Below are positions 2,567 through 28,185 of a DNA stretch of 38,785 nucleotides, piece by piece. Below the pieces are notes generated by a model. It did not search any database. It was not told the origin of the DNA and was given only the letters and a program-made list of their open reading frames with translations. Location of the stretch: assembly GCA_035291485.1 (NCBI GenBank), contig DATDSA010000010.1, positions 1 through 38,785 on the forward strand, in the 5' to 3' direction. The position numbers were made by a program, and so were the translations under genes. This DNA comes from Patescibacteria group bacterium. GTDB lineage: Bacteria; Patescibacteriota; WWE3; 9FT-COMBO-53-11. The stretch's first letter is position 1. Each line of letters opens with the position of its first letter.

Positions 2567-4252
2567 GTGCCAAGGCGAAAGTTTCCGAAACTCGTCTTCG
2601 TTTCGGGTGGTGTGCTCTCCGGGTTAGGCAAAGGAATCACCACCGCATCCGTTTCTCTCCTCCTCAAATCCCGCGGCTATAAAGTCACCGCCATCAAGTG
2701 CGACATGTATCTCAATATCGACGCCGGCACGATGAACCCCGTTGAACACGGGGAGGTCTTCGTGACCGATGACCGGGCCGAGACCGACCAGGATATCGGC
2801 CACTACGAACGCTTTCTGAACGAGGACCTGCCGGGGAAGAATTACATCACCGCCGGCCAAGTCTACTACGAGGTCCTCCAGAGAGAACGGCGGCTGGAGT
2901 ACGGGGGAAGAACGATCGACGCCTACGAGGAGATCCCACCGGAGATCATCCGCCGAATAAAACAGGCGGCCCAGGGGTACGAGATCGCGGTGATCGAGCT
3001 GGGCGGAACGGTCGGTGAGTACCAGAACATCATGTTCTTCGAGGCCATCCGCCGGCTGAAGATCAAGGACCCCAGCTCGACCCTGCTGATCCACGTCGGC
3101 TACCTGCCGCTCCCGCCGACCCTGGGAGAGCCCAAATCGAAACCGATCCAACAATCCATTCAAGAACTGAACTCGCTCGGCCTTCGGCCGGATTTCGTTG
3201 TTGCCCGCTCGGAGAAACCGATCGACTTGAAGCGGAAGGAGAAAATCGCTTTCTCCGCCGCGATCGATCCCCAGGACGTAATCTCAAACCCCGATGTCAG
3301 CCCGGTCTACCGCGTCCCGCTGGTGCTGGAGGAGCAGGAGCTGGCGCGAAAGATCCTGCAAAGGTTCGGCTTGCGGTCCCGCGGCCGAAAACTCGGCGAA
3401 TGGAAGAATCTCATCAAAAGGATCGAAGGGGCTAGAAAACCGATCAGGATCGGTATGGTCGCCAAGTACATCTCCTCCGGCGATTTCACCCTGGAAGATT
3501 CCTACATCTGCGTCAACGAAGCGATCAAGCACGCCGCTTGGGAGCAAGGGCTGGATCCCCAGCTGGTTTGGATCGATTCCGAGAAGCTGGAGGAGATGGG
3601 AAAGAAGGAGTTTGAAGAAGCGCTCGCGGGCTTGGACGGGATGATCGTCCCGCAGGGGTGGGGGAGCCGGGGAACGGAGGGGAAGATCGGGGCGATCCGA
3701 TTCGCCCGAGAAAACAAAATCCCATACCTGGGGCTCTGTTTCGGAATGCAGATGGCGGTGGTCGAGTTCTCCCGCCACGTGCTGGGATTGAAGGACGCCC
3801 ACACCGCCGAGGCTGATCCCAAAACCAAGAACCCGGTGATCCACGTCATGCCGAACCAGGAGAAATACCTCCAGAATAGGCAGTACGGCGGGACGATCCG
3901 GCTCGGCGCTTGGAAGTGCGGGATTGAGCCCCGGACGCTACTGCGCCGGATCTACGACCGAGGGGTGGTCAGCGAACGGCACCGCCACCGCTACGAGCTG
4001 AACAACAAGTACCGCCAGCTGCTGGAGAAAAATGGAATGAGGTTGTCCGGATTATCGAGCGATAAGGAGCTGGTGGAAGCGATTGAGTTGGATCAAAAAA
4101 TTCATCCGTTCTTTCTGGGGGTACAATTCCATCCGGAATTAAAATCCCGGCCGTTGGCACCCCACCCTATTTTTAGGGAGTTTATGCGCGCCGCGAGCGG
4201 CGACGGAGGTAGAGACCGACCTCAAAAGCGAGGGCGGCGAAAAGCAGATTGA
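2567..4252 (+). CDS. pyrG: CTP synthase
   Basis: N-terminal FVSGGVLSGLGKGITTAS is present. The glutamine amidotransferase domain shows GLCFGMQ and HRHRYE motifs. 561 aa. Confidence 0.95.
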   Translation: MPRRKFPKLVFVSGGVLSGLGKGITTASVSLLLKSRGYKVTAIKCDMYLNIDAGTMNPVEHGEVFVTDDRAETDQDIGHYERFLNEDLPGKNYITAGQVYYEVLQRERRLEYGGRTIDAYEEIPPEIIRRIKQAAQGYEIAVIELGGTVGEYQNIMFFEAIRRLKIKDPSSTLLIHVGYLPLPPTLGEPKSKPIQQSIQELNSLGLRPDFVVARSEKPIDLKRKEKIAFSAAIDPQDVISNPDVSPVYRVPLVLEEQELARKILQRFGLRSRGRKLGEWKNLIKRIEGARKPIRIGMVAKYISSGDFTLEDSYICVNEAIKHAAWEQGLDPQLVWIDSEKLEEMGKKEFEEALAGLDGMIVPQGWGSRGTEGKIGAIRFARENKIPYLGLCFGMQMAVVEFSRHVLGLKDAHTAEADPKTKNPVIHVMPNQEKYLQNRQYGGTIRLGAWKCGIEPRTLLRRIYDRGVVSERHRHRYELNNKYRQLLEKNGMRLSGLSSDKELVEAIELDQKIHPFFLGVQFHPELKSRPLAPHPIFREFMRAASGDGGRDRPQKRGRRKAD

Positions 4253-7200
4253 CGAGCGGCATTCCGGTGGCGGGGAGAACTTCTCCTTCGTCTTCCTCAC
4301 CCAGGACATCCTGGTCGTTGTTGGTCACCGTACAGGTCTTTTCCTCACCGACCTTAATATCTCCAACACAGTCTTCCGAGTAGAAGGCGGTGTATCCGGC
4401 GACCGGCTCTTCCGTGACTTCATACTGACCGGCGTCGAGGTCAATGACGGTTCCGCCCTCGTTCCCGAAGAAAGCGATCGGGTCGGGATTCGTCGCGGCG
4501 ATAGACAGAGTAAAATCGCTAGCGATCTTGGTACCGGTGCTGTTGTTGACCACCCGCTTGATGACGGTGAGCTTGGGAGCAATATCGTCGTTGGTGATGG
4601 TGCAGGAGATGTTTTCGCCCTCATTCAGGGTAACGGTACCACCGAGAACCGAGGGACAGTCATCCTCACGCTCTTCACCGCCGGTGAGGGAAACGAAGGC
4701 GTACCCGAAGAGACCCGCTTCATTCAGCGCGTAGGGAGTGTTAGCGTCAACTTCCAGGGTCTGACCGGAGGTCACCGCGGTATCTCCAATGGTCAGGCCA
4801 AAATCATTCGGCCCCGCTGTACCACCGTCGAGATTGATGACTTCTTTGTAGAGGGTAATCGTGGGAGCGGTGTCGTCGTTGGTCACGGTGCAGGTTTCCG
4901 AACCACCGTTCGGAATAAACACTTCGCTGCAGTTGTCGTAGCTGGTTCCGTAACCATCCGCCGACTCTTCAGTCACGGTGTAGGTTCCCTGAGGAACGGG
5001 TATTTCCTTCAACGCCCCGTCATCCAAGAACGGTCCGGGTTCCAAACCGTTGACTTGGAAGTAGAAATCGGAACCATTCGCGTCGCCGCCGTTGTCGTTG
5101 ACGACAATTTTCTTCACAATTAGTGTTCCCGGCTGATCGTCGTTGGTGATGGTGCAGGTCTTGGACTCCCCGGGAAGAAGAGTGATATTCCCCTGCGCAT
5201 CGCAATCCTCACCCCAGGTAGAAGGAGCGTAGCCAAAAAGCGTGTCTTCGCTGACCGTGTAAGAACCCGCATCCACGAAATGAGAACCCCAGCTGGATTG
5301 AACAGCATCGATGTAGACGGAAAAATCATTTTCGGTTGCGGTGCCACCGTCATCGTTGGGAAGAACTTTAACCAAAGTGAGGGTGGAAGTTTCGTCATCG
5401 TTTAGGATGGTGCAAGTCATCGTTTCCCCCGGCAAAAGAGCTACTTCTCCTTGCGCGTTGCAATCCCCACCCCAAGAAAAGGGCGTGTAACCAGGAAGGG
5501 TGTCTTCACTAACTGTGTAGGTACCGGCATCTACTTGATGGGATCCCCAGCTGGATTGAACAGCATCGATGTAGACATTAAAGTCATTCTCGGTTGCAGT
5601 TCCGCCGTTATCGTTGGGGAGAATCTTCGCCAAAATAAGCGTCGCTTCCTCATCGTCGTTTACAATCGTACAGGTGACATCCTCAGCCAATCCTAGGGTA
5701 ATAACATTCCCGTTTAACTGCCCACCATCACACTGCCAATCGCTGGGAGTGTAGCCGGAAGGACCACCCGATTCGGACAAGGTATAGGGCTCTCCCGCCA
5801 AAACAGCCTGCGGTCCAACGGTCGGTCCTGACCCAGAAAAACCATCAGTTCCGGTGGCCTGTAACGTCCACTGATTCTCGTTGGCTTGACCACCATCATT
5901 GTTGGTCACTGTTTTGACCAAAGTAAGGGTAGGAGCGACATCATCATTGGTGATGGTGCAGGTTTTTTCGTCGCCGTAGGCCAAGCTAACGTTACCGTCC
6001 TCACAACCTTCACTAAACGTCACAAGGTAACCGGAGGGGTCGATTTCTAAGAAATCTTCCTCAAAAGATTGACTACCAACTTCTAATGTATACGTAGTCT
6101 CCCAAACCCTAAGAACATCATTAATATAAAGATCAAAATTATCTTCGGTTGCAGTACCGCCATTATCGTTAGGAAGCTCTTTGTAGACAGTTAGAGTCGG
6201 CAACTGGCCGTTAGTAAAAGTGCAAGTTATATCACCGCCCGCAGTAAGATCAATGGAATTAGGGTTAATCTCGTTGTTCACCCCATCCGAGCAGACTGCA
6301 CTAATCGGCGCCCAGCCTGTAACCGGATATTCAATTAGAGAATAGTTTCCCGGCAAAAGGTCAGGAAAAGTGTGGGGAGTTTGTTCATCGATCAACGAAG
6401 TAGAACCAGCACCACTCAAAGTAAAGTCAAAAGACTGATTTGAACCAGAAGGTATGGTAATTTTATCAACCGTGATTGAGCCGGGGTTAATTTCATTGGT
6501 GAAAGTGCAAGTGACATCCTCACCTTCAGGCAAGGGCAGTACAACGCTGTCATTCGATCCAGTTCCAATTGGATCACCATCTTCATCCAAACAGGCAACC
6601 GAGGTTGAATAGCTGGAACTGGTAACCTCGCTAAGCGTGTAACTATCTGGAGTAAGATTTCCAAATGTGTAATCCCCACCATCGATAATGTTGCTGGCAG
6701 TACCAACCAGGGAACTGTCGGAGGAGAGTTCCAAGTTAAAGTCCCAGGTACTTGAATCATCCGGAACAACATCCTTAACTACCGTTACGGTAGCGGGCGA
6801 GACTACCGCGTCAGCCGAAAGAGATTTATCAGTAGCTCCCAAATTACCAAGATCATCGTCCCCGTCATCATTAACATCGGCGTACCAACTTATTAAGCGC
6901 ATGTGGTATGGGGAACCATGGATGCCTCCCGCGGAATTTCCGATTCCCCAGTCAAGTTTAGAACCAAGATGACCACCCCAAGCCAAAATTGCGGTTGAGT
7001 TAGTAGCGGAAAAGGTTATATCGATGGTTGTCTCGGCCGCATCATCCGCCAAATCCCCTTGGGTGTTGTAGGCCATACTTGAAATTGCCCCGTTCCACAT
7101 GGACATCACCCGCTCACCAGCCGGCAATGCATTAAAACTAGTGGTGGGTTGACCGAAAACCGGAGATCCGGCAGAACTGGGAGCAGGAATTGCAAAAGTA

Positions 7201-7655
7201 CTAGAAGGAGCAGACCCATCGGTAACTCCAACGACCCCATCGGTAGGATCAACGGTTTCGGTCAAGTGCCCAAAGTAACCGTGGTCTTCCAATCTTTGAT
7301 ACTGGGTAAGAAAGTCAATCGCGTGGGCTCCGCTGTGTTTGATGTCGTAACCGATTGTTAAAGTGATAGGCTCACCGATCGGCAAATCCGTCAAAACAGC
7401 TCGATAGGATTGAGAGTATCCCTCTATTAAGTGAGAGTTTGAGCCTCCGGCATTACCGTTAAACCAAATCGGAGGAACATTGGGCAAAGCGGCAGAACCG
7501 TTACGCATCTGATCGAGATCAACATTTGAACTAAGGTCATCACCATCAGCGTAAACCGGTACGGGGAGATACGAGAAAATCCCAATAACATACTGGGACA
7601 GAAGAGTCAGCGAGGTAAAGAGCGAGAATAATTTTTCGCGCGTTTGCGTACGCAT
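4182..7655 (-). CDS. LPXTG-anchored cell-surface protein with about nine tandem beta-sandwich repeat domains
   Basis: A signal-peptide-like N-terminus is present. Nine modules each end in C-T-x-T/V/L-N-D/N-D, for example TCTITNDD, with NDNGGTAxxxDF cores. The C-terminus is LPATG plus a hydrophobic helix plus RRRSRRA. Confidence 0.85.
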   Translation of the reverse strand: MRTQTREKLFSLFTSLTLLSQYVIGIFSYLPVPVYADGDDLSSNVDLDQMRNGSAALPNVPPIWFNGNAGGSNSHLIEGYSQSYRAVLTDLPIGEPITLTIGYDIKHSGAHAIDFLTQYQRLEDHGYFGHLTETVDPTDGVVGVTDGSAPSSTFAIPAPSSAGSPVFGQPTTSFNALPAGERVMSMWNGAISSMAYNTQGDLADDAAETTIDITFSATNSTAILAWGGHLGSKLDWGIGNSAGGIHGSPYHMRLISWYADVNDDGDDDLGNLGATDKSLSADAVVSPATVTVVKDVVPDDSSTWDFNLELSSDSSLVGTASNIIDGGDYTFGNLTPDSYTLSEVTSSSYSTSVACLDEDGDPIGTGSNDSVVLPLPEGEDVTCTFTNEINPGSITVDKITIPSGSNQSFDFTLSGAGSTSLIDEQTPHTFPDLLPGNYSLIEYPVTGWAPISAVCSDGVNNEINPNSIDLTAGGDITCTFTNGQLPTLTVYKELPNDNGGTATEDNFDLYINDVLRVWETTYTLEVGSQSFEEDFLEIDPSGYLVTFSEGCEDGNVSLAYGDEKTCTITNDDVAPTLTLVKTVTNNDGGQANENQWTLQATGTDGFSGSGPTVGPQAVLAGEPYTLSESGGPSGYTPSDWQCDGGQLNGNVITLGLAEDVTCTIVNDDEEATLILAKILPNDNGGTATENDFNVYIDAVQSSWGSHQVDAGTYTVSEDTLPGYTPFSWGGDCNAQGEVALLPGETMTCTILNDDETSTLTLVKVLPNDDGGTATENDFSVYIDAVQSSWGSHFVDAGSYTVSEDTLFGYAPSTWGEDCDAQGNITLLPGESKTCTITNDDQPGTLIVKKIVVNDNGGDANGSDFYFQVNGLEPGPFLDDGALKEIPVPQGTYTVTEESADGYGTSYDNCSEVFIPNGGSETCTVTNDDTAPTITLYKEVINLDGGTAGPNDFGLTIGDTAVTSGQTLEVDANTPYALNEAGLFGYAFVSLTGGEEREDDCPSVLGGTVTLNEGENISCTITNDDIAPKLTVIKRVVNNSTGTKIASDFTLSIAATNPDPIAFFGNEGGTVIDLDAGQYEVTEEPVAGYTAFYSEDCVGDIKVGEEKTCTVTNNDQDVLGEEDEGEVLPATGMPLVNLLFAALAFEVGLYLRRRSRRA
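5135..5655 (-). repeat. Recent tandem duplication of one ~261-bp domain-coding unit inside the surface protein gene
   Basis: TLILAKILPNDNGGTATENDFNVYIDAVQSSWGSH... and TLTLVKVLPNDDGGTATENDFSVYIDAVQSSWGSH... are adjacent. By eye they are roughly three quarters identical at protein level, with long identical DNA runs. Confidence 0.8.
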
Positions 7656-18420: not shown

Positions 18421-19332
18421 TTATTTATTCCCGCGGTGGAATTTGCGATGGACTTCCTTGAGTTGGGGATTGGTGATGTGAGTGTAGATCTGGGTGGTGG
18501 AGATGTTAGCATGGCCCAGCAGTTCCTGGACGGACCGGATATCGGCGCCTCGGCGCAGGAGGTCGGTCGCAAAGGTGTGCCGCAGGGTATGAGGAGACGG
18601 GTCGGCCGCAATTCCCGCCGCCAATGCGTATTTCTTGACCAACTTCTGGATGCTCCGCACCGTCAACCGAGCGTCCCAGCCTTCCGGATCAATCGGGTTT
18701 CCCCCCTTGAAACGAATGAAAAGGGGCTTGTATTCGTCCTGCCGGTTGTTGAAATAGTTTGTGAGAGACGCTGCGGCGGAATCGGAAACAAAAACCACCC
18801 GAATTTTTCTCCCTTTACCCATTACCGAGATCTCCCGGGTCTTGAGATTCACATCCTTTACATCTAGTCCTACCAGTTCCGAAACCCGCAAACCGGTGGA
18901 AAAAAGAAGCTCCAGGATCGCTTTGTCCCGTCGGCCCTGTTGGGATTTCGGATCAGGAGCATCCAGAAATCTCTCCAAAGTGGATTCGTCCATCACCTTT
19001 ATCTTTCGGTCACCTTCTTCGATCAGCTCGATCCGGTCCGACGGCATCACTTCCAGCTCTTCTTGCTGAGCAAGGTAGCGCAGAAAGGAACGGACCGCAA
19101 TTAGATGGTGGTTCTGGGAACTTTTCTCAAGCGGATTTCCATTCTTGTCCTGATAGCGATTAAGGAATAGTTTGTAGCGCCGAACTAATTGAGGCGTAAT
19201 CGAAGTAGGGGAGTCGGCCTTCGCAAAATCGAGGAATCTTCTTAAAGAGAAAGCGTAGTTCTCGACGGTGTGGGGCGAACGGCCCTTCTCAATCTCTAAA
19301 TATTCTAAGAATCTTTGCAGGTACTCTTTCAT
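18421..19332 (-). CDS. Tyrosine recombinase, XerC/XerD family
   Basis: An N-terminal SAM-like core-binding domain is present. The catalytic region shows GLRVSEL, HTLRHTFATDLL and LLGHANISTTQIYTH. Confidence 0.9.
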   Translation of the reverse strand: MKEYLQRFLEYLEIEKGRSPHTVENYAFSLRRFLDFAKADSPTSITPQLVRRYKLFLNRYQDKNGNPLEKSSQNHHLIAVRSFLRYLAQQEELEVMPSDRIELIEEGDRKIKVMDESTLERFLDAPDPKSQQGRRDKAILELLFSTGLRVSELVGLDVKDVNLKTREISVMGKGRKIRVVFVSDSAAASLTNYFNNRQDEYKPLFIRFKGGNPIDPEGWDARLTVRSIQKLVKKYALAAGIAADPSPHTLRHTFATDLLRRGADIRSVQELLGHANISTTQIYTHITNPQLKEVHRKFHRGNK

Positions 19333-21248: not shown

Positions 21249-21806
21249 TCAAATACTTGTTAATTGGTGAATTAGCTCGTCTGGGATATCGAAGTTGCTG
21301 TAGACATCCTGGACGTCGTCCTGCTCATCCAGGGCTTCCGCCAGGGCCAGCACCTTTTTCGCCGTTTCAGGATCGGAAACCGGGACCGTAAAGGTCGGGT
21401 TCTCCGGATCGATGAAGACATAGGCGGCCGAGCCGGCCTCCCCCATTTTGCCACCGTGGTTCTCAAAGATGCGCCGGATCTCGGGGAGGGTCCGGTTCTT
21501 GTTGTCGGTCAGGATCCTGACCATGAAGGCCGTCCCCATCGGACCATACCCCTCGTAGACCGCTTCCTCCAATGCCTGGGCCGAGGAGGCCGAAGCGGCG
21601 GCCCGCTCGATATTCTCTTTCGGCATGTTGTAGGAGTGGGCTTTCTCGATGGCTGACCTCAGGGTCGGATTGCTATCGGGATCGGAACCGCCTCGCCGCG
21701 CTGCCGTGGAGATCTCTCTCGCCAACTTGGAGAAGACCTTGCCGCGCTTAACATCGGCAACCCCTTTGGCGCGCTTGATTGTCGCCCACTTCGAGTGACC
21801 TGACAT
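21249..21806 (-). CDS. yebC: YebC/PmpR-family protein, short 185-aa form
   Basis: MSGHSKWATIKRAKGVADVKRGKVFSKLAREI, YEGYGPMGTA and the C-terminal DDVQDVYSNF are present. The middle domain appears shortened relative to the ~240-aa forms I recall. Confidence 0.85.
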   Translation of the reverse strand: MSGHSKWATIKRAKGVADVKRGKVFSKLAREISTAARRGGSDPDSNPTLRSAIEKAHSYNMPKENIERAAASASSAQALEEAVYEGYGPMGTAFMVRILTDNKNRTLPEIRRIFENHGGKMGEAGSAAYVFIDPENPTFTVPVSDPETAKKVLALAEALDEQDDVQDVYSNFDIPDELIHQLTSI

Positions 21807-21941
21807 TATTCAATAATCCTTTCTTGATCGCGACACTCGAATTGCAACCGAGCGAAGCGAGGACAGCACTTTTTGCAACCTGAGCACAGCGAAGGCCAGT
21901 ATTTCGAATGACCGCTCATTTCAGGAAAATGATAACAGATA

Positions 21942-21979
21942 AACAAAAAAAACCGTCAGGTTTTTTAGGCCTGACGGTT
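21942..21979 (-). terminator. Rho-independent terminator ending the ATPase operon
   Basis: On the minus strand, AACCGTCAGG-cctaaaaaa-CCTGACGGTT is followed by TTTTTTGTTT. It overlaps the last codons of CDS 21965..22828. Confidence 0.75.
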
Positions 21980-22828
21980 GTTCTTCTCAAACACTTCCCA
22001 AGATCGGATGACAAGGTTGGCTGCCATTCGGATTTCGGTAGGAACATCTCCGTAGCGCCAACGATACCACCCGGCGATGGCCTCCAACCGATAGCGGTAC
22101 CAGTCTCGGCAGGACCGGCAGATGCAGGTCACGTGCTTTCCGTGCCGAAGGCGACTGAACCAGCCCATCGCGATGTAGTCGATCTCCTCGAAACCGCGCT
22201 CGAGCTCCTCCGCCGAAACCCCGAGGATCTCCGCGGGAATGCTGGCCGGAACGGCCGCCGGTGGGAGTGCCGGTTGCTCCGGAGACTCCTCCGCCACCTC
22301 GATTTCGGGATCGGGCGGGGTTTGGCGCAGCTCTAGGAAAAAAATCGTGTGCTGCGCCTCTTCCCGACTTCTGGAAAAGGTGTGGTATCCCGCATCCTCG
22401 GCCAACCTGTCAAACATGACCAGGTGTTCACCGTCAGGCAGGAGCGCGATTATCCCCCAGACATTACTCGGCTCTCCTCGAAACTCGAGTTCATGAAAGA
22501 GGGCGGAATCCTGGACTTCTTTCCACTGAACGAGCGGAAAGGATTGATAGTCTGGGAGTTCCGGAGAATCACCCTCTTCCCATTCCCCTCTGTCCTCGAC
22601 GGACTTCTTCATCCTGGAGAGGGACTTCAGATTGGTGAGGATCGTCTGGCACATCACCGGATTCGGAACGACCACCAGATCGGGCGGGTCACTCATCAAA
22701 ATCCAGAACTCCCTCCCGTCGGCCAACCGAGCCTTGATCCCCCACTTTTTCTTGAACGGATCTTCCCGGAATTCAGAAACGGAAATGGCGGCGTCTTCCG
22801 GTACTTTGTCCCAGTGCAAGACTTCCAT
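21965..22828 (-). CDS. Hypothetical protein: two tandem ~95-aa modules, an acidic linker and a Trp/Arg/Cys-rich C-terminal region
   Basis: ATG is preceded by GAGAGGAGAG. HWDKVPEDAAISVSEFREDP...ADGREFWILM parallels QWKEVQDSALFHELEFRGEP...PDGEHLVMF. The C-terminus contains HGKHVTCICRSC. Confidence 0.7.
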   Translation of the reverse strand: MEVLHWDKVPEDAAISVSEFREDPFKKKWGIKARLADGREFWILMSDPPDLVVVPNPVMCQTILTNLKSLSRMKKSVEDRGEWEEGDSPELPDYQSFPLVQWKEVQDSALFHELEFRGEPSNVWGIIALLPDGEHLVMFDRLAEDAGYHTFSRSREEAQHTIFFLELRQTPPDPEIEVAEESPEQPALPPAAVPASIPAEILGVSAEELERGFEEIDYIAMGWFSRLRHGKHVTCICRSCRDWYRYRLEAIAGWYRWRYGDVPTEIRMAANLVIRSWEVFEKNNRQA

Positions 22829-22920
22829 CGGATACTCTCCTCTCTTTAGTTTTTAGGTTAGGCTAATTCTGCCACAAATTTACCGAAAAATCAATGCTAT
22901 GGGTTATTAAGGGAGGGGGG

Positions 22921-23844
22921 TTACCGAAGATCTTCTTCGTCCATTGGTTTCGCGGGTTTTCCACCGGAGGCGCCTGCCTGCGCAGGCAGGGATTTCGCGG
23001 CGCTCAACTTTGCTGGCTCTTCTTTCTTGACCTCTTTCACGGGAGCCTTTTCCACCTTAGCAGGTTCTTTCTTCGGAGCTGCTTTTTTAGCAAGAACTTC
23101 TTTCTTCTCTTCCGGCTTCACGGGCTTCCCCATAGAGATTTTTTTGTTATGGGCAATCTCCTCGGGAGTCCACACATCTCGGATTACACGAGCGGGCTTC
23201 TCCGTTGGTTTTTCCATCGGCCGAATCTCTTCTTTAGCTTTTTCGGGATGTTCGGTAGAGATTCTTTTGTTATGGGCAATCTCCTCGGGAGTCCACACAT
23301 CTCGGATTACACGAGCGGGCTTCTCGGGTTCGGAAACACCGCTGCCCGGCTTCCGGCCGATAATCTCCACTAATCCCGCAAAAGGAACGTTCCGCTGCCC
23401 TTTCGGAAGAATAATTTTGAGCTTGTCGCCCTCTTCCCCACCCCAGTAGCGGACCGCTCCCTGGATGAGCCGATAGGAACTATCCTTGGAGAGAGCCTCG
23501 AAGTGGCCATCCTTTACCGCCAGCTGAGCTTCCTGCTCCTCGCGTTCCATCTCCTCCAAAAGCTTAAAGCGCCGGCCCTCCGGGCCCTCCACCATCTTTA
23601 GTTTGTCACCGTAGACCAGCTTGGTTTTCGCGGAATAGTTGTCGGGAACGGGATATTTTTTACCGGCTTCGGTGACCATAAACATCCCGTCGTACTTGCC
23701 GACCAAACCGGGCATTTCGGGAGTACCGCTGCGGTGTTCTATTTCAGAAATGAGTTGTTTGGCTAAATTGAGAGAAGAGGACGCGGCGTTCAGCGCCTGG
23801 TTCAAAAGCTGGATTTTATCTTTCCCCCCGTGCCTCTCTTCCAT
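22921..23844 (-). CDS. Hypothetical protein with a coiled N-terminus, two beta-rich modules, an exact internal repeat and a Lys/Pro/Ala-rich tail
   Basis: ATG 23844 lies 13 nt after the ATPase stop. The motif YPVPDNYSAKTKLVYGDKLKM is present. EKPARVIRDVWTPEEIAHNK occurs twice. The tail is KKAAPKKEPAKVEKAPVKEVKKEEPAK. The part of the track ORF upstream of 23844 overlaps the ATPase gene. Confidence 0.7.
   Translation of the reverse strand: MEERHGGKDKIQLLNQALNAASSSLNLAKQLISEIEHRSGTPEMPGLVGKYDGMFMVTEAGKKYPVPDNYSAKTKLVYGDKLKMVEGPEGRRFKLLEEMEREEQEAQLAVKDGHFEALSKDSSYRLIQGAVRYWGGEEGDKLKIILPKGQRNVPFAGLVEIIGRKPGSGVSEPEKPARVIRDVWTPEEIAHNKRISTEHPEKAKEEIRPMEKPTEKPARVIRDVWTPEEIAHNKKISMGKPVKPEEKKEVLAKKAAPKKEPAKVEKAPVKEVKKEEPAKLSAAKSLPAQAGASGGKPAKPMDEEDLR
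23133..23325 (-). repeat. Two 70-nt direct repeats with a 123-nt period inside the CDS
   Basis: 23133-23202 and 23256-23325 differ at one position (T/C) by my alignment. Confidence 0.9.
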
Positions 23845-23857
23845 TGAAAAGATTCTA

Positions 23858-26380
23858 TCACCCTTCCTCGTCGTCCTGCATCGCCGGTGGCGCGGTTGGC
23901 TCCTCCGCACCGGCGGCGACCGAAGGTTCGACCACGGTCTCACCCTTCTCCTCGGCAATCGCCATCCCCAGACTGAACACCCGCTCCGACCAACGCTTAA
24001 TCTTATCCTCAATCTCCGCCGCATCGCGCCCGTAGATCTCGCGAGAGTGCTCCACCGCAGCCTGGCCCTGATAGGTTTGGCCTTCGGGAGGAGCCAGGGA
24101 TATCGCCGAAAACGGCTTGGAGGTCATTCCGTCCACCAGCAGCTTGAGATAGATATGGTATTTATCAAGAGAGATCAGATCTTCCGAAGTGAAGTAGGGC
24201 AAGAATTCTTTCTCCAAAATGGCGGCGTCCGGCGCTCCCACCGAAAACAGCACCATCGTACCAATGTTTCCAAAAACCGCATCCTGCATGCTCTCCGGCA
24301 GTTGGGCCGTGTACTGATGGGTGAGGTGGAGATTAAGGCGATACTTCCGGGCCTCAGAAAGGATCGAGGCAAAGGAGCCGGAAGCAAAGTTCTGAAACTC
24401 GTCCGCGTAGAGGTAGAAATCGCGCCGTTCGGCTTCGGGAATGTTTACCCGCTGCATCGCGGCAAAATTGATCCGAGAAATCATCAGCGAACCCAGGAGA
24501 TTGGCATTGTCTTCCCCGATCTTTCCTTTAGAAAGATTGATCAGAAGAATCTTGCCCTCATTCATGATCTCATCGAGGTTCAGCGAGGAGGTGCGTTGAC
24601 CGACGATATTGCGGATCGTCGAGGACGACAAAAAGCGGCCGACTTTGTTTTGGATCGGGGCCACCGCTTCGGTGTGGAGGCGGGGGTTGGTCATCATCTG
24701 GGTGTATTCCTTCTCCCAAAACTCCCGCAGCACCGGGTCTTTCATTTTGTAGACAATGTACTTCTGGTAGTTCTTGTCGGAGAGAAGCCGGGTAATTCCA
24801 AGGAGGGTCGTCCCGGGAACCTCTAAGAGAGTCAGGATCGCGTTGTTCAAGAGATACTCCAACCGCGGTCCCCAGGAAACATCAATGAAGTGTTTCTTAA
24901 AGGCATCCAGGAGACCGGAAGCGAGCAAGTTCTTTTGGGAAGTGTCCTGCAGTTCCAGAAGATTGAGACCGATCGGGCGCTCGGTATCGGAGGGATCAAA
25001 ATAAACAACGTCGTTCACTCTTTCCGCCGGTACAAAATCGAGCAGCTCTTTAACCAAGTCACCGTGCGGATCCAGGACCGCCACTCCTTCCCCGTTCTGC
25101 ATATCCTGCACAATCATGTTCTTAAATACCGTGGTCTTACCGGTACCGGTTTTTCCGACCAGATACATATGCTGCCGCCGATCTAGGCGCTTAATTCCAA
25201 ATTTCGCAAAACGCTCCCGGAAAGTCGTCTGCGCAAAATAAGTGCAGTCGGAAGTGGGAAGATTCGCGGGCGGTTCCCCCTTTTTGTAAGTCGCCCAAGC
25301 AATGGCGGGAGTCTGCACGGAAACATTCGGCAGGTGGAAGATCGAAGCAAGCTCCGCGGTGTCCAAGACATAGGTTTTATCAGGAAATTCGCGCCGGATT
25401 ATTTTGTCTTTGAAATCTCCGATTCCTTCGGCGGGGGCAACCTGGATAAAAGAGTTCAAACTGGCCGAAGAGAACTGCCGGAAGGAAGCGGCAGCTCCCC
25501 GCAAAAGCTCGGCGCAGTTCTCAGGCTCCAGGGCCGCCGTAAAAACTCTCACGGTCGTTTCAAAACCCACTCGGGTCAGCTTGTCCTCAATCATCTTCAA
25601 ATCCAGTTCCTGCCCGGCCGAGAGCCGAGGCATATCTTGTTTGGGAGGAAGCGGTTTGGAGGGGGGCGTCAACAGGGAGGGATTGAGAAGCTGCTTGATA
25701 GCATAGGGAATCATTCCTCCCAATTCCTCGGTGACCCCGGTGCCGATCTCAGAAATACCCAAACCCATTTTCTTGGTTCCCGTCCGCACGTCATTGACGT
25801 ATTTGTGGCCCGCGGCCTGCCAAACATCCGGAACGGGGCGGACCAGGATCTGGAGCCAGATCCGCTCTCCCTCTTTCACCTCGCTCATCGAGCCGGTCAC
25901 CGCCGCCAGCGGGTCGACTTCGAAATCCCGGAAAGTCTTCGTGGGGAAGAAAGAATCCTTGGAGAGGATCAGACTGCCGCCGCAGGTGGAGAGACCGGAA
26001 AGATCGGTCTGCATGTAATCGTGCTCCATCAACCGGAGCTCCGCGGAAGGATACTGGGCGTAGATCTGTCCTTCGACAAATTCCTGCAGATGCTTCGGGC
26101 AGCGCACGTAGAAGTGGATGCCGGAAGAATCGGCGGCAATCTCAAAGGAGATGTGCTCCTGATGGGTGGGGTCGGCACGCAGCAGCCCGTGCAAGGAAGC
26201 AAACATTTGTTCCGAGGCCAGCGGCAGAAGCTCGTTCGCCTTCGGAACCCGAATCTCCATCAAGACAGTTTCCTCAAACTTGCGGGGGGACGAAGAGGCA
26301 CGACCGGACCGGGCCGAACGGACGGCCCCCATTACGGAAAGACCAAACAAACCAAAAACCAACGGTAGTAGTGTAATCAC
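23858..26380 (-). CDS. Membrane-anchored P-loop ATPase of the TraD/VirD4/TrwB (FtsK-HerA superfamily) type with an unrecognised ~380-aa N-terminal region
   Basis: GTG start. The N-terminal helix is MITLLPLVFGLFGLSVMGAV. Walker A is LVGKTGTGKTT and Walker B is FYLYADEFQNF, followed by RKYRLNLHLTHQ. 840 aa. Confidence 0.8.
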   Translation of the reverse strand: MITLLPLVFGLFGLSVMGAVRSARSGRASSSPRKFEETVLMEIRVPKANELLPLASEQMFASLHGLLRADPTHQEHISFEIAADSSGIHFYVRCPKHLQEFVEGQIYAQYPSAELRLMEHDYMQTDLSGLSTCGGSLILSKDSFFPTKTFRDFEVDPLAAVTGSMSEVKEGERIWLQILVRPVPDVWQAAGHKYVNDVRTGTKKMGLGISEIGTGVTEELGGMIPYAIKQLLNPSLLTPPSKPLPPKQDMPRLSAGQELDLKMIEDKLTRVGFETTVRVFTAALEPENCAELLRGAAASFRQFSSASLNSFIQVAPAEGIGDFKDKIIRREFPDKTYVLDTAELASIFHLPNVSVQTPAIAWATYKKGEPPANLPTSDCTYFAQTTFRERFAKFGIKRLDRRQHMYLVGKTGTGKTTVFKNMIVQDMQNGEGVAVLDPHGDLVKELLDFVPAERVNDVVYFDPSDTERPIGLNLLELQDTSQKNLLASGLLDAFKKHFIDVSWGPRLEYLLNNAILTLLEVPGTTLLGITRLLSDKNYQKYIVYKMKDPVLREFWEKEYTQMMTNPRLHTEAVAPIQNKVGRFLSSSTIRNIVGQRTSSLNLDEIMNEGKILLINLSKGKIGEDNANLLGSLMISRINFAAMQRVNIPEAERRDFYLYADEFQNFASGSFASILSEARKYRLNLHLTHQYTAQLPESMQDAVFGNIGTMVLFSVGAPDAAILEKEFLPYFTSEDLISLDKYHIYLKLLVDGMTSKPFSAISLAPPEGQTYQGQAAVEHSREIYGRDAAEIEDKIKRWSERVFSLGMAIAEEKGETVVEPSVAAGAEEPTAPPAMQDDEEG

Positions 26381-26469
26381 CGCTTTAAACGAGAAACTTA
26401 ATTTCCAACACCTTAAGCATACCTAATTCTACATCAGGGGTGCAATACCTTTATAGGTTGAAACTAGAT

Positions 26470-26497
26470 GGGCCTGGGCTAAATTTGGCCCAGGCCC
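26470..26497. other. Perfect 10-bp GC-rich hairpin upstream of the ATPase operon
   Basis: GGGCCTGGGC-taaatttg-GCCCAGGCCC. There is no adjacent T-run on either strand. Confidence 0.5.
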
Positions 26498-26554
26498 GAA
26501 GAAAGGAGAGAGACTACCAGTAGTTTAACAGTTAATAGTTTATAGTCAATAGTT

Positions 26555-26596: not shown

Positions 26597-26619
26597 GTTT
26601 CGTGTTGGGACGGCTATCG

Positions 26620-26766
26620 GGTGTAGCGGTAGAGTCGGGAGGTGACCTTGGGATCCATCTGCGAAGGTTGGGAGACCTGCGACAGACGGGCCTGGGTGTC
26701 CTTCTGCTCTCCGGCGTACAGCGAAAGCCGTTCCTTGACCTGGAGATCAAGAGCTGATTTCTTCAT
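26620..26766 (-). CDS. Possible 48-aa small protein (below the ORF-track cutoff)
   Basis: My own translation gives MKKSALDLQVKERLSLYAGEQKDTQARLSQVSQPSQMDPKVTSRLYRYTR. ATG is preceded by AGAGAGGAATGTG. A hairpin plus T-run follows. Confidence 0.4.
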
Positions 26767-26896
26767 CACATTCCTCTCTGATCTAGGATAGTTTAAATAT
26801 ACCAGACTATAGGATAAAAGTCAAGCCCAGGCCGACCTACCCCAATCCAGATAAACAGCGGATTTTTTCTCCCCGCCAAATAAGCTAAAATGGTTC

Positions 26897-27720: not shown

Positions 27721-27807
27721 AAACAGAGTTAGGGACCTGCGAGAGTGCTGACCCCGTTAGTTGGACCGCCTCTCTGTGTGCTCCCTTCGAGAGGTGGTGA
27801 AAATCAC

Positions 27808-28185
27808 TTGAGTCAAAAATTATACGTTGGCAATCTTCCCTGGGCAACCACGGGTGATGATCTTAATAAGATGTTCGCCGAGGTTGGCAAGGTGGAGGAT
27901 GCCGTAATCATCAGCTACAAAGACACCGGCCGCTCCAAGGGTTTCGGTTTCGTGACGATGAAAGACGACGACGCCGCCGAAGAAGCAGTTAAGAAATTCA
28001 ACGGCTTCGAGTTGGAGGGACGTGCCCTGATCGTCGACAAAGCCCGCCCAATGCGCGAAGAAGGTGAAGGTGGTGGAGAATCTCCCGCTGGCGGTGAAAC
28101 TCCGGCTGAAGGAGAAGCTCCTGCTACCGGTGAAGCCCCCGCCGCTGAGGAAACTCCGGCTGCTGAAGAAACTCCCGCTGCTTAA
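27808..28185 (+). CDS. RRM-type RNA-binding protein with an acidic Pro/Ala/Glu repeat tail
   Basis: TTG start follows GAGAGGTGGTGA. RNP-2 is LYVGNL and RNP-1 is KGFGFVTM. The tail is GETPAEGEAPATGEAPAAEETPAAEETPAA. Confidence 0.85.
   Translation: MSQKLYVGNLPWATTGDDLNKMFAEVGKVEDAVIISYKDTGRSKGFGFVTMKDDDAAEEAVKKFNGFELEGRALIVDKARPMREEGEGGGESPAGGETPAEGEAPATGEAPAAEETPAAEETPAA

Follow-up and report, generated by a model that had tools for sequence, protein, structure and literature searches.

The locus described here raises the question of what a coupling-type ATPase does at a place in a bacterial genome where the genes of a conjugation system do not accompany it. It lies on contig DATDSA010000010.1 from a Patescibacteria group bacterium (assembly GCA_035291485.1), of which the whole stretch of 38,785 nucleotides was analysed and is hereafter called the window, and it comprises three minus-strand genes coding for the ATPase and for two further proteins, referred to as gene 2 and gene 3. 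No relaxase, type IV secretion system (T4SS) or phage genes were found within these 38.8 kb, as had been stated in the first-pass annotation, which was made from the letters of the sequence alone, and no relaxase or T4SS channel genes were found in the flanks of 83 genome loci carrying the ATPase. The explanation we favour, whose chances of being right or wrong we hold to be about equal, is that a domesticated coupling ATPase and a dedicated auxiliary with oligonucleotide/oligosaccharide-binding (OB) folds, the product of gene 2, handle single-stranded (ss) nucleic acid or nucleoprotein at the membrane. The open reading frames (ORFs) and domains concerned are as follows.

23858-26380, minus strand: ATPase gene, 840 aa, GTG start (ORF listing)
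26318-26377, minus strand: single N-terminal transmembrane (TM) helix of the ATPase, about residues 2-21 (the hydropathy segment spans residues 1-22)
25196-26275, minus strand: N-domain of the ATPase, residues 36-395, DUF8128 (AlphaFold2 and Foldseek)
23981-25195, minus strand: P-loop motor domain of the ATPase, about residues 396-800
25133-25156, minus strand: Walker A motif, GKTGTGKT
24386-24415, minus strand: Walker B motif, YLYADEFQNF
22921-23844, minus strand: gene 2, 307 aa, ATG 13 nt past the ATPase stop codon (ORF listing)
21965-22828, minus strand: gene 3, 287 aa, 92-nt gap after gene 2 (ORF listing)

The three minus-strand ORFs are present in the ORF listing with the sizes and gaps first given for them. 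The motor domain of the ATPase is matched by the Pfam families TrwB_AAD_bind (E-value 3.8e-9, residues 396-713, above the cut-off) and DUF87 (1.4e-8) and by the TraD and VirD4-like models of NCBIfam, of which the VirD4-like CD1115 model covers residues 400-715 with an E-value of 1.2e-8, and the best sequence-profile match in PDB is TrwB (4.1e-5), which bears out the earlier description of a membrane-anchored TraD/VirD4-type P-loop protein. The motifs quoted in that description, GKTGTGKT, YLYADEFQNF and RKYRLNLHLTHQ, are all found in the translation, and their key residues do not vary: G409, K410, G412, G414, K415, D660, E661, R678, H688 and Q689 are invariant among 14 aligned homologues, as are the RKY...THQ residues across the alignment, with a mean column identity of 58% across classes. 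The only 19-residue windows with a Kyte-Doolittle value above 1.6 belong to the N-terminal segment, in line with the single TM helix predicted earlier. The N-terminus is hydrophobic in 14 of 14 aligned homologues, and homologues of 830-843 aa span 100% of the query, both of which support the long GTG start. Canonical type IV coupling proteins (T4CPs) usually have two TM helices.

The ATPase had been called an orphan, which is apt for its position and not for its family: more than 4,144 clusters of homologues, all from Patescibacteria, have been catalogued with the precomputed domains PF26449 (DUF8128), PF10412 and PF01935. The closest named relatives come from candidate division WWE3, and the homologues bear the NCBI name 'type IV secretion system DNA-binding domain-containing protein'. 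The family is known but uncharacterised, and a literature search for DUF8128 or PF26449 found no papers.

The N-domain, previously left unassigned, was modelled with AlphaFold2 as residues 36-395, with a predicted local distance difference test score (pLDDT) of 87.3 and a predicted template-modelling score (pTM) of 0.80. The top 14 Foldseek matches of this model in PDB are all TrwK, the VirB4 protein of R388, with E-values from 3.7e-7 to 3.9e-4, a probability of 1.00 and query template-modelling scores (TMq) of 0.34-0.45, so that on the strength of the model the domain is taken to have the fold of the VirB4 N-terminal domain. The order of this domain and a RecA-like motor following it is also common to the ATPase and TrwK. 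The motor itself is not that of VirB4: none of the VirB4 families AAA_10, CagE_TrbE_VirB and TraC gave a Pfam match in the ATPase or among the precomputed domains of 120 homologues, and the only VirB4 model matched (NCBIfam, 2.4e-4) covers just the P-loop. A true VirB4 matches AAA_10 with an E-value of 7.7e-116, whereas the DUF8128 family matches coupling-protein models only, and the ATPase gene of the window does not lie beside VirB3, VirB6 or VirB8.

A tblastn search against plasmids recovered homologues that include the N-domain on plasmids of Bacillus, Priestia, haloarchaea, Sulfolobus and Streptomyces. In the B. subtilis plasmid NZ_CP154917.1 the homologue is the first gene of a conjugation operon of the Gram-positive type and is followed by genes for Replic_Relax, TcpC, VirB4 (the one with the AAA_10 match mentioned above) and a large membrane protein; BLASTP aligns it with residues 36-764 of the ATPase at 24% identity (E-value 3e-51). 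In a plasmid of Haladaptatus, a haloarchaeon, the order is a VirB4-like gene, an ORF for the N-domain and a T4CP gene. Judging by these sequences, the members of the family are coupling proteins whose N-domain is VirB4-like, descended from the coupling proteins of Gram-positive and archaeal conjugation systems, and since the plasmid relatives stand in the coupling position, the gene of the window is taken to be a chromosomal, vertically inherited branch of this class, domesticated away from relaxase and T4SS genes. The 885-aa Bacillus protein, annotated as 'DUF87 domain-containing protein', and the ATPase are alike in their two-domain layout, in the Walker A and B motifs and in the TrwB_AAD_bind match. 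They differ in the TM anchor, which is absent from the Bacillus protein, and the ATPase differs from plasmid coupling proteins in having an OB-fold partner and housekeeping flanks, with no relaxase, VirB4, VirB6 or VirB8 nearby. Of the features by which a T4CP is recognised, the ATPase thus has the profile of the P-loop and all-alpha domain, the N-terminal anchor and homology to proteins in the coupling position, and it lacks co-encoded relaxase and T4SS genes in the 38.8-kb window and in the flanks of the 83 loci. The first-pass annotation had set the locus apart from canonical conjugative coupling proteins residing in a genome with a full T4SS or integrative and conjugative element (ICE). 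This separation holds in part only: homology to conjugative coupling proteins extends over the full length, and most Patescibacteria carry a chromosomal T4SS, encoded elsewhere (PMC12102498).

Gene 2 gave no sequence match in Pfam, NCBIfam or PDB. In the AlphaFold2 model of its product a long helix (residues 6-38) is followed by two beta-barrels (residues 46-97 and 101-161, DNA 23362-23709), with pLDDT above 90 at residues 11-30 and 51-160 and about 50 in the tail, of which some 140 aa are disordered. Foldseek places the barrels closest to the tandem cold-shock domains (CSD1-CSD2) of RNase R/II (E-values from 4.5e-4 to 3e-3), followed by IF1/eIF1A, S1 and aIF5A, with a weak match to the coiled coil and double OB fold of Mpa/PAN. 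As modelled, gene 2 codes for a tandem OB-fold protein with two five-stranded barrels; the two beta-rich modules and the basic tail noticed earlier correspond to these barrels and to a disordered basic linker (tail pI 9.4). The tail ends in an acidic tip, DEEDLR (22924-22947, minus strand), and an EE(E/D)LR end is found in nearly all of 55 aligned homologues, the final Leu being invariant and the Arg and one Glu conserved in more than 90%. The family comprises 1,083 representatives at 50% identity, 942 of which score at or below 1e-10, and no homologue of gene 2 was found on plasmids.

The linker of gene 2 contains an internal duplication:

23103-23325, minus strand: 123-nt internal duplication in the linker of gene 2, EKPARVIRDVWTPEEIAHNK being encoded twice (repeat search)

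The two 100-nt copies are 85% identical and spaced 123 nt, and the closest homologue (P0121) is 41 aa shorter, from which the duplication appears to be recent and the linker to be evolving by repeat gain; Tandem Repeats Finder found nothing on the locus. A distant gene-2-like protein was observed at positions 4995-6080 of locus L166, between tgt and dnaX-dnaB and with no ATPase nearby; its two OB folds are accompanied by a coiled coil and by an acidic tail, rich in Pro, Thr and Glu, which ends in IAELDI.

The association of gene 2 with the ATPase was followed in a metagenome scan seeded on gene 2. A DUF8128 ATPase lies directly upstream of gene 2 on the same strand in 57 of the 60 informative loci, gene 2 identity ranging from 29 to 79% in these 57, and the contexts of individual relatives agree with this adjacency. 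In several lineages the association is closer still. The ATPase of locus L003 continues through a Q/P-rich linker of about 130 aa into an OB-OB module of the gene 2 type within one protein (hmmsearch 1e-24), the ATPase carries a canonical S1 domain as a C-terminal fusion in sister WWE3 proteins (P0022, P0024 and others), and Saccharibacteria have a gene-2-like gene directly behind an ATPase paralogue. The tails are distributed in a complementary manner: most ATPases from outside WWE3 have disordered C-terminal tails of 50-300 aa, whereas ATPases of the WWE3 type have none, the disordered tail and conserved tip being found there on gene 2 instead. A hydrophobic-x-hydrophobic pattern occurs in the last seven residues of 29 of 66 ATPase tails (from loci L001-L083) against 10% of interior windows (binomial p 2e-12, uncorrected for phylogeny), and these tails often end in PG(E/Q)x(I/V)x(F/L) or x(I/L)x(L/F)(R/H). 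The OB-OB and S1 fusions together with this exchange of tail and tip between ATPase and gene 2 suggest that the OB module stays attached to the motor, whether through a docking tip or through covalent linkage. The link to nucleic acids drawn in the first-pass annotation is better founded with the tandem OB folds of gene 2 and with OB and S1 domains fused to the ATPase elsewhere.

Two variant arrangements of the ATPase were also observed. In about 20 loci from other Patescibacterial lineages (L019, L029, L034, L037-L039, L044, L049, L057, L059, L062-L064, L069 and L073-L079) it is split into a DUF8128 gene and a motor gene, with the break right after the conserved EPPxNLP motif, and the motor ORF always keeps the reading frame of the DUF8128 ORF, even across five spacers of 12-78 nt which hold several stops. 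Stop-codon readthrough was considered for these forms and rejected: the junctions consist of TAA or TAG, sometimes two or three stops, with an ATG a few codons on, as expected of two genes. Four Saccharibacterial loci (L007, L010, L013 and L068) carry two tandem full-length ATPase paralogues, for example at positions 3541-10985 of L010. In L007, L010 and L068 paralogue A (about 850 aa) comes first, followed by a tail-less gene-2-like gene of 179-190 aa, a gene for a Sigma70_r4 and HARE-HTH protein, and paralogue B, which has about 1,030-1,077 aa and a long disordered tail; L013 contains only the two adjacent paralogues.

From the observed domain identities, ancestry, co-conservation, fusions and operon signals (the latter described below) we infer a physical interaction between the ATPase and the product of gene 2, a nucleic-acid substrate, and a direction and a conduit for its movement. 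The two proteins would form a machine resembling the type IV coupling complex, in which the OB module of gene 2 captures single-stranded nucleic acid or nucleoprotein in the cytoplasm, its linker and tip hold this module at the membrane-bound motor, and the motor, presumably hexameric and with its P-loop of the VirD4/TrwB type, drives the substrate into a membrane conduit. As conduit, the Patescibacterial T4SS encoded elsewhere on the chromosome would be the most likely candidate and an uptake channel a possible one. The product of gene 2 shares with the bacterial ssDNA-binding protein (SSB) an OB fold, a disordered linker and a conserved acidic C-terminal tip, and it differs in its tandem barrels resembling S1 and cold-shock domains, its N-terminal helix, its EE(E/D)LR tip and the lack of a Pfam SSB match. 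The tip of SSB is DDDIPF. Coupling proteins are known to work with auxiliaries, and HelP and OrfL/OrfM are OB-fold auxiliaries of Gram-positive ICEs (PMC12857230). Gene 2 is likened to these, namely to DotM/DotN with DotL, to the TraM-TraD tail, to HelP of ICEBs1 and to OrfL/OrfM of ICESt3, by the shared concept of an auxiliary which brings the substrate and not by sequence; it differs from them in its pair of OB folds with a coiled-coil helix, in its linker of 140 aa and acidic tip, and in that it would act without a relaxase.

Several observations weigh against this explanation. The template-modelling score of the match between the N-domain and VirB4 is only about 0.44, and the Foldseek E-values behind the predicted OB folds of gene 2 are modest (about 1e-3 to 1e-4), and the disordered tail keeps the template-modelling scores low. 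The ligands of OB folds also include proteins and sugars. Gene-2-like genes occur without an adjacent ATPase in three of the 60 loci, one of them beside dnaX-dnaB, which leaves room for a wider, SSB-like role of the OB family. In most of the Patescibacterial lineages sampled (about 70 of the 83 genome loci), gene 2 could not be detected within 8 kb. Finally, the T4CP homologue of Southlakia epibionticum is reported to be non-essential and its T4SS genes essential (PMC12102498). This speaks against the homologue being indispensable to that T4SS, although redundancy between paralogues could explain the finding; the essential T4SS cluster of Southlakia has no recognisable coupling protein (Wang et al., PMC10633639).

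The conserved motif with which gene 2 ends after its long disordered charged tail also suits another explanation, by which the ATPase is the coupling protein of a T4SS encoded elsewhere and gene 2 a secreted effector with a C-terminal signal, delivered to the host. T4CPs are described as recognising C-terminal signals (PMC12857230; abstract of bioRxiv 10.1101/2024.03.25.586700), and the T4SS is near-universal in Patescibacteria (PMC12102498). We nevertheless consider protein export unlikely. The OB-OB fusion in L003 and the S1 fusions fit a subunit or an adaptor and not a departing cargo. In the survey, 5,713 VirD4-type homologues, which probably belong to the same family as the ATPase of the window, were detected in 2,918 of 3,035 Patescibacterial genomes (~96%) against 2,417 genomes with VirB4, and only 148 of the 5,713 lie near virB4, exaptation being considered possible by the authors (PMC12102498; Quinonero-Coronel et al. 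2025). The dispensability of the T4CP homologue where the T4SS is essential points in the same direction. The accessible part of this survey is silent on the VirB4-like N-domain, on the OB partner, on the OB and S1 fusions, on the split and fused forms and on the synteny with yebC, ruvC and xerC. The first three of these, including the linker and tip of the OB partner, are new relative to the literature searched.

In classes other than WWE3, a gene coding for a protein with Sigma70_r4 and HARE-HTH domains is the commonest neighbour, lying immediately upstream in 50 of 79 loci, further upstream are DprA (18 of 79) and TopA (32 of 79), many of these loci being Saccharibacterial, and dcw genes are located downstream on the opposite strand, as in Saccharibacteria. 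The presence of dprA and topA would be expected if the ATPase were a motor on the cytoplasmic face for the uptake of ssDNA or RNA, serving competence or nucleotide scavenging together with ComEC or another channel and not with a T4SS. The adjacency of dprA and topA may, however, be historical because it is an old housekeeping synteny, seen also in the gene order of B. subtilis. The single-strand binding of OB and S1 modules would suit uptake as well, Patescibacteria show natural competence and have no nucleotide synthesis of their own (PMC10633639, PMC12857230), and ATPases of the T4SS type drive DNA import elsewhere (PMC12857230). Against uptake, neither comEC nor comF adjoins the ATPase-gene 2 pair in the window, and deletion of comEC had no effect on the viability of Southlakia, which means that uptake is not an essential source of nucleotides there; import is in our opinion improbable.

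The co-conserved OB partner, the fusions and the mixed architecture offer three new handles on the role of the near-universal orphan coupling homologues, and they bear on the exchange or uptake of nucleic acids by ultra-small symbionts. The independent OB-OB and S1 fusions point to the same kind of substrate, and the mix of a VirB4-like N-domain with a VirD4-like motor is common to the coupling proteins of Gram-positive plasmids. A bolder generalisation, which we advance with considerable doubt, is that the orphan Patescibacterial coupling homologues are distinct translocation motors for ss nucleic acid, combining a VirB4 N-terminal domain and a VirD4 ATPase with an SSB-like tandem-OB adaptor tethered by a tip or by fusion, and are not spare parts of the T4SS. 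Such motors would carry DNA or RNA through the membrane of organisms that are unable to make nucleotides.

The limits of the transcription unit and the genes next to it matter for the remaining explanations. The relevant features are:

26416-26445, minus strand: promoter-like site with -35 TTGCAC, an 18-nt spacer and -10 TATGCT, about 35 nt upstream of the GTG (sequence reading)
21941-21979, minus strand: intrinsic terminator with a 10-bp stem and a 9-nt loop, followed by a T-run (sequence and palindrome listing)
18421-19332: tyrosine recombinase (Pfam Phage_integrase), a housekeeping gene of the Xer type in conserved synteny

The three-gene unit has its own promoter and terminator. At the promoter-like site a TTGCAA-N18-TATCCT/TATCAT arrangement is found in alignment in L081, L082, L108 and L103, and the site was not listed by the consensus promoter scan. 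The terminator, read on the minus strand from 21979 to 21941, consists of AACCGTCAGG, CCTAAAAAA and CCTGACGGTT, followed by TTTTTTGTTT; it is a canonical stem-loop with a T-run, as strong as had been described, and the stop codon of gene 3 lies within its loop. The order ATPase, gene 2, (gene 3), yebC, ruvC, DUF5656 and xerC is kept across relatives, with yebC within the flank in 38 of 44 loci and usually followed by ruvC, a gene for a DUF5656 membrane protein and xerC. The latter corresponds to the Xer-type recombinase listed above, so the statement that the window contains no integrase has to be corrected in so far as a member of the Phage_integrase family is present.

This synteny allows for the ATPase being an FtsK- or HerA-like DNA pump which works with RuvC, YebC and XerC in recombination, dimer resolution or segregation of the chromosome. 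The position of the Saccharibacterial gene beside the dcw cluster and topA speaks for such a role, as does the membership of the ATPase in the same FtsK-HerA superfamily (PMC12857230). We consider chromosome maintenance quite improbable, even so. Because of the strong terminator between them, yebC is separate from the ATPase unit, and yebC, ruvC, DUF5656 and xerC form a separate transcription unit in conserved synteny with it; the recombination link proposed in the first-pass annotation stands as regards gene order, whereas a functional tie would be conjecture. FtsK/SpoIIIE membership was rejected, as there is no FtsK_SpoIIIE match at E-values up to 0.1 and only a single TM helix, and a separately annotated ftsK is present in TM7x (PMC10768705). 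HerA membership was rejected too: HerA models match the P-loop only (NCBIfam 3.9e-3; PADLOC 5.7e-6 to 7e-3), no full-length match was obtained, and the N-domain is VirB4-like and not a HAS-barrel. The OB and S1 partners suggest single strands as the substrate and not duplex DNA.

The last explanation is a HerA-like anti-phage defence system, which the first-pass annotation had offered as its alternative, or a decaying remnant of a mobile element or ICE. The conjugative ancestry of the ATPase family would agree with a remnant, and PADLOC gives weak matches to generic ATPases (mad8 2.1e-10, HerA 5.7e-6). These generic matches are all that was found for defence, with none for gene 2 or gene 3 and no nuclease, Sir2 or NurA partner. 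The position among housekeeping genes is fixed across lineages, the catalytic motifs have been kept intact without variation, the GC content shows no anomaly, and ATPase homologues are near-universal (PMC12102498), which leaves defence or decay with only a very slim chance. An ICE remnant in particular was rejected in view of the housekeeping flanks, the conserved synteny and the normal GC content. The window is altogether a housekeeping stretch of unremarkable GC content, containing genes for CTP synthase, MetK, YchF, GyrA, a P-type ATPase, the Xer-type recombinase, RuvC and YebC, as well as for a HAD hydrolase, an RRM protein, an LCP protein, RluA, DksA and M16 peptidases.

Gene 3 does not belong to the conserved core, since it is present in only 16 of 57 loci with room for it, and the conserved three-gene unit expected earlier is reduced to the pair of ATPase and gene 2 with its 57 of 60 loci. 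Gene 3 codes for two repeats of about 80 aa and a C-terminal part with an invariant CxCxxCR in the alignment, and no match was found in Pfam, NCBIfam, PADLOC or PDB. Of the His/Cys knuckle assigned to it previously, the CxCxxC is invariant but the His is not conserved. A word-indexed search yielded only six homologues, and the positional homologues in L081 and L082 share 31-37% identity with it (E-values 3e-33 and 2e-59), the ATPases of these loci being about 75% identical. Gene 3 is a young, clade-restricted accessory transcribed with the pair.

Upstream of the ATPase gene, two further elements were noted. One is a candidate small RNA of about 55 nt (26455-26549, minus strand) with its own promoter, TTGACT-N16-TAAACT, and an invariant CU-rich stretch, GTCTCTCTCCTTTCTTC, which is anti-Shine-Dalgarno-like and resembles the 3' end of 16S rRNA. 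This stretch is followed by a 10-bp GC hairpin at 26497-26470, in which four pairs have changed on both sides in a compensatory way and no pair is disrupted; the fold has a minimum free energy of -25.6 kcal/mol (z -4.4). The candidate was also found in L081, L082, L091, L092, L096, L101, L102, L104, L108, L109, L113, L114 and L115. The GC hairpin was considered as a leader or attenuator of the ATPase gene and rejected: the element is an independent unit, with a promoter of its own and, in L082 and L114, a distance of 2-3 kb to the ATPase. There was no Rfam match at the gathering threshold; on the opposite strand the L31-Coriobacteria leader is matched below its threshold (26.3 bits against 33), so the functional strand of the candidate may be either. 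The other element is a short ORF:

26613-26765, minus strand: 50-aa ORF (MKKSALDLQVKERLSLYAGEQ...), preceded by the ribosome-binding site GAGAGGAA

Its promoter at 26796-26824, TTGACT-17-TATATT, has 10 of 12 matches and is the best sigma-70-like promoter of the region, and the ORF showed no conservation in L081 or L082.

Three other genes of the window have features of their own. YebC is short, with 185 aa (21249-21806), its Pfam match to the second and third domains is split into two stretches, and the same short YebC of 174-189 aa is found in relatives. The gene at 27745-28185 codes for a bacterial RRM_1 protein with a tail rich in Glu, Pro and Ala. The gene at 4182-7655 codes for a protein of 1,157 aa, probably a surface adhesin, which contains seven or more prealbumin-fold repeats of the SpaA type.

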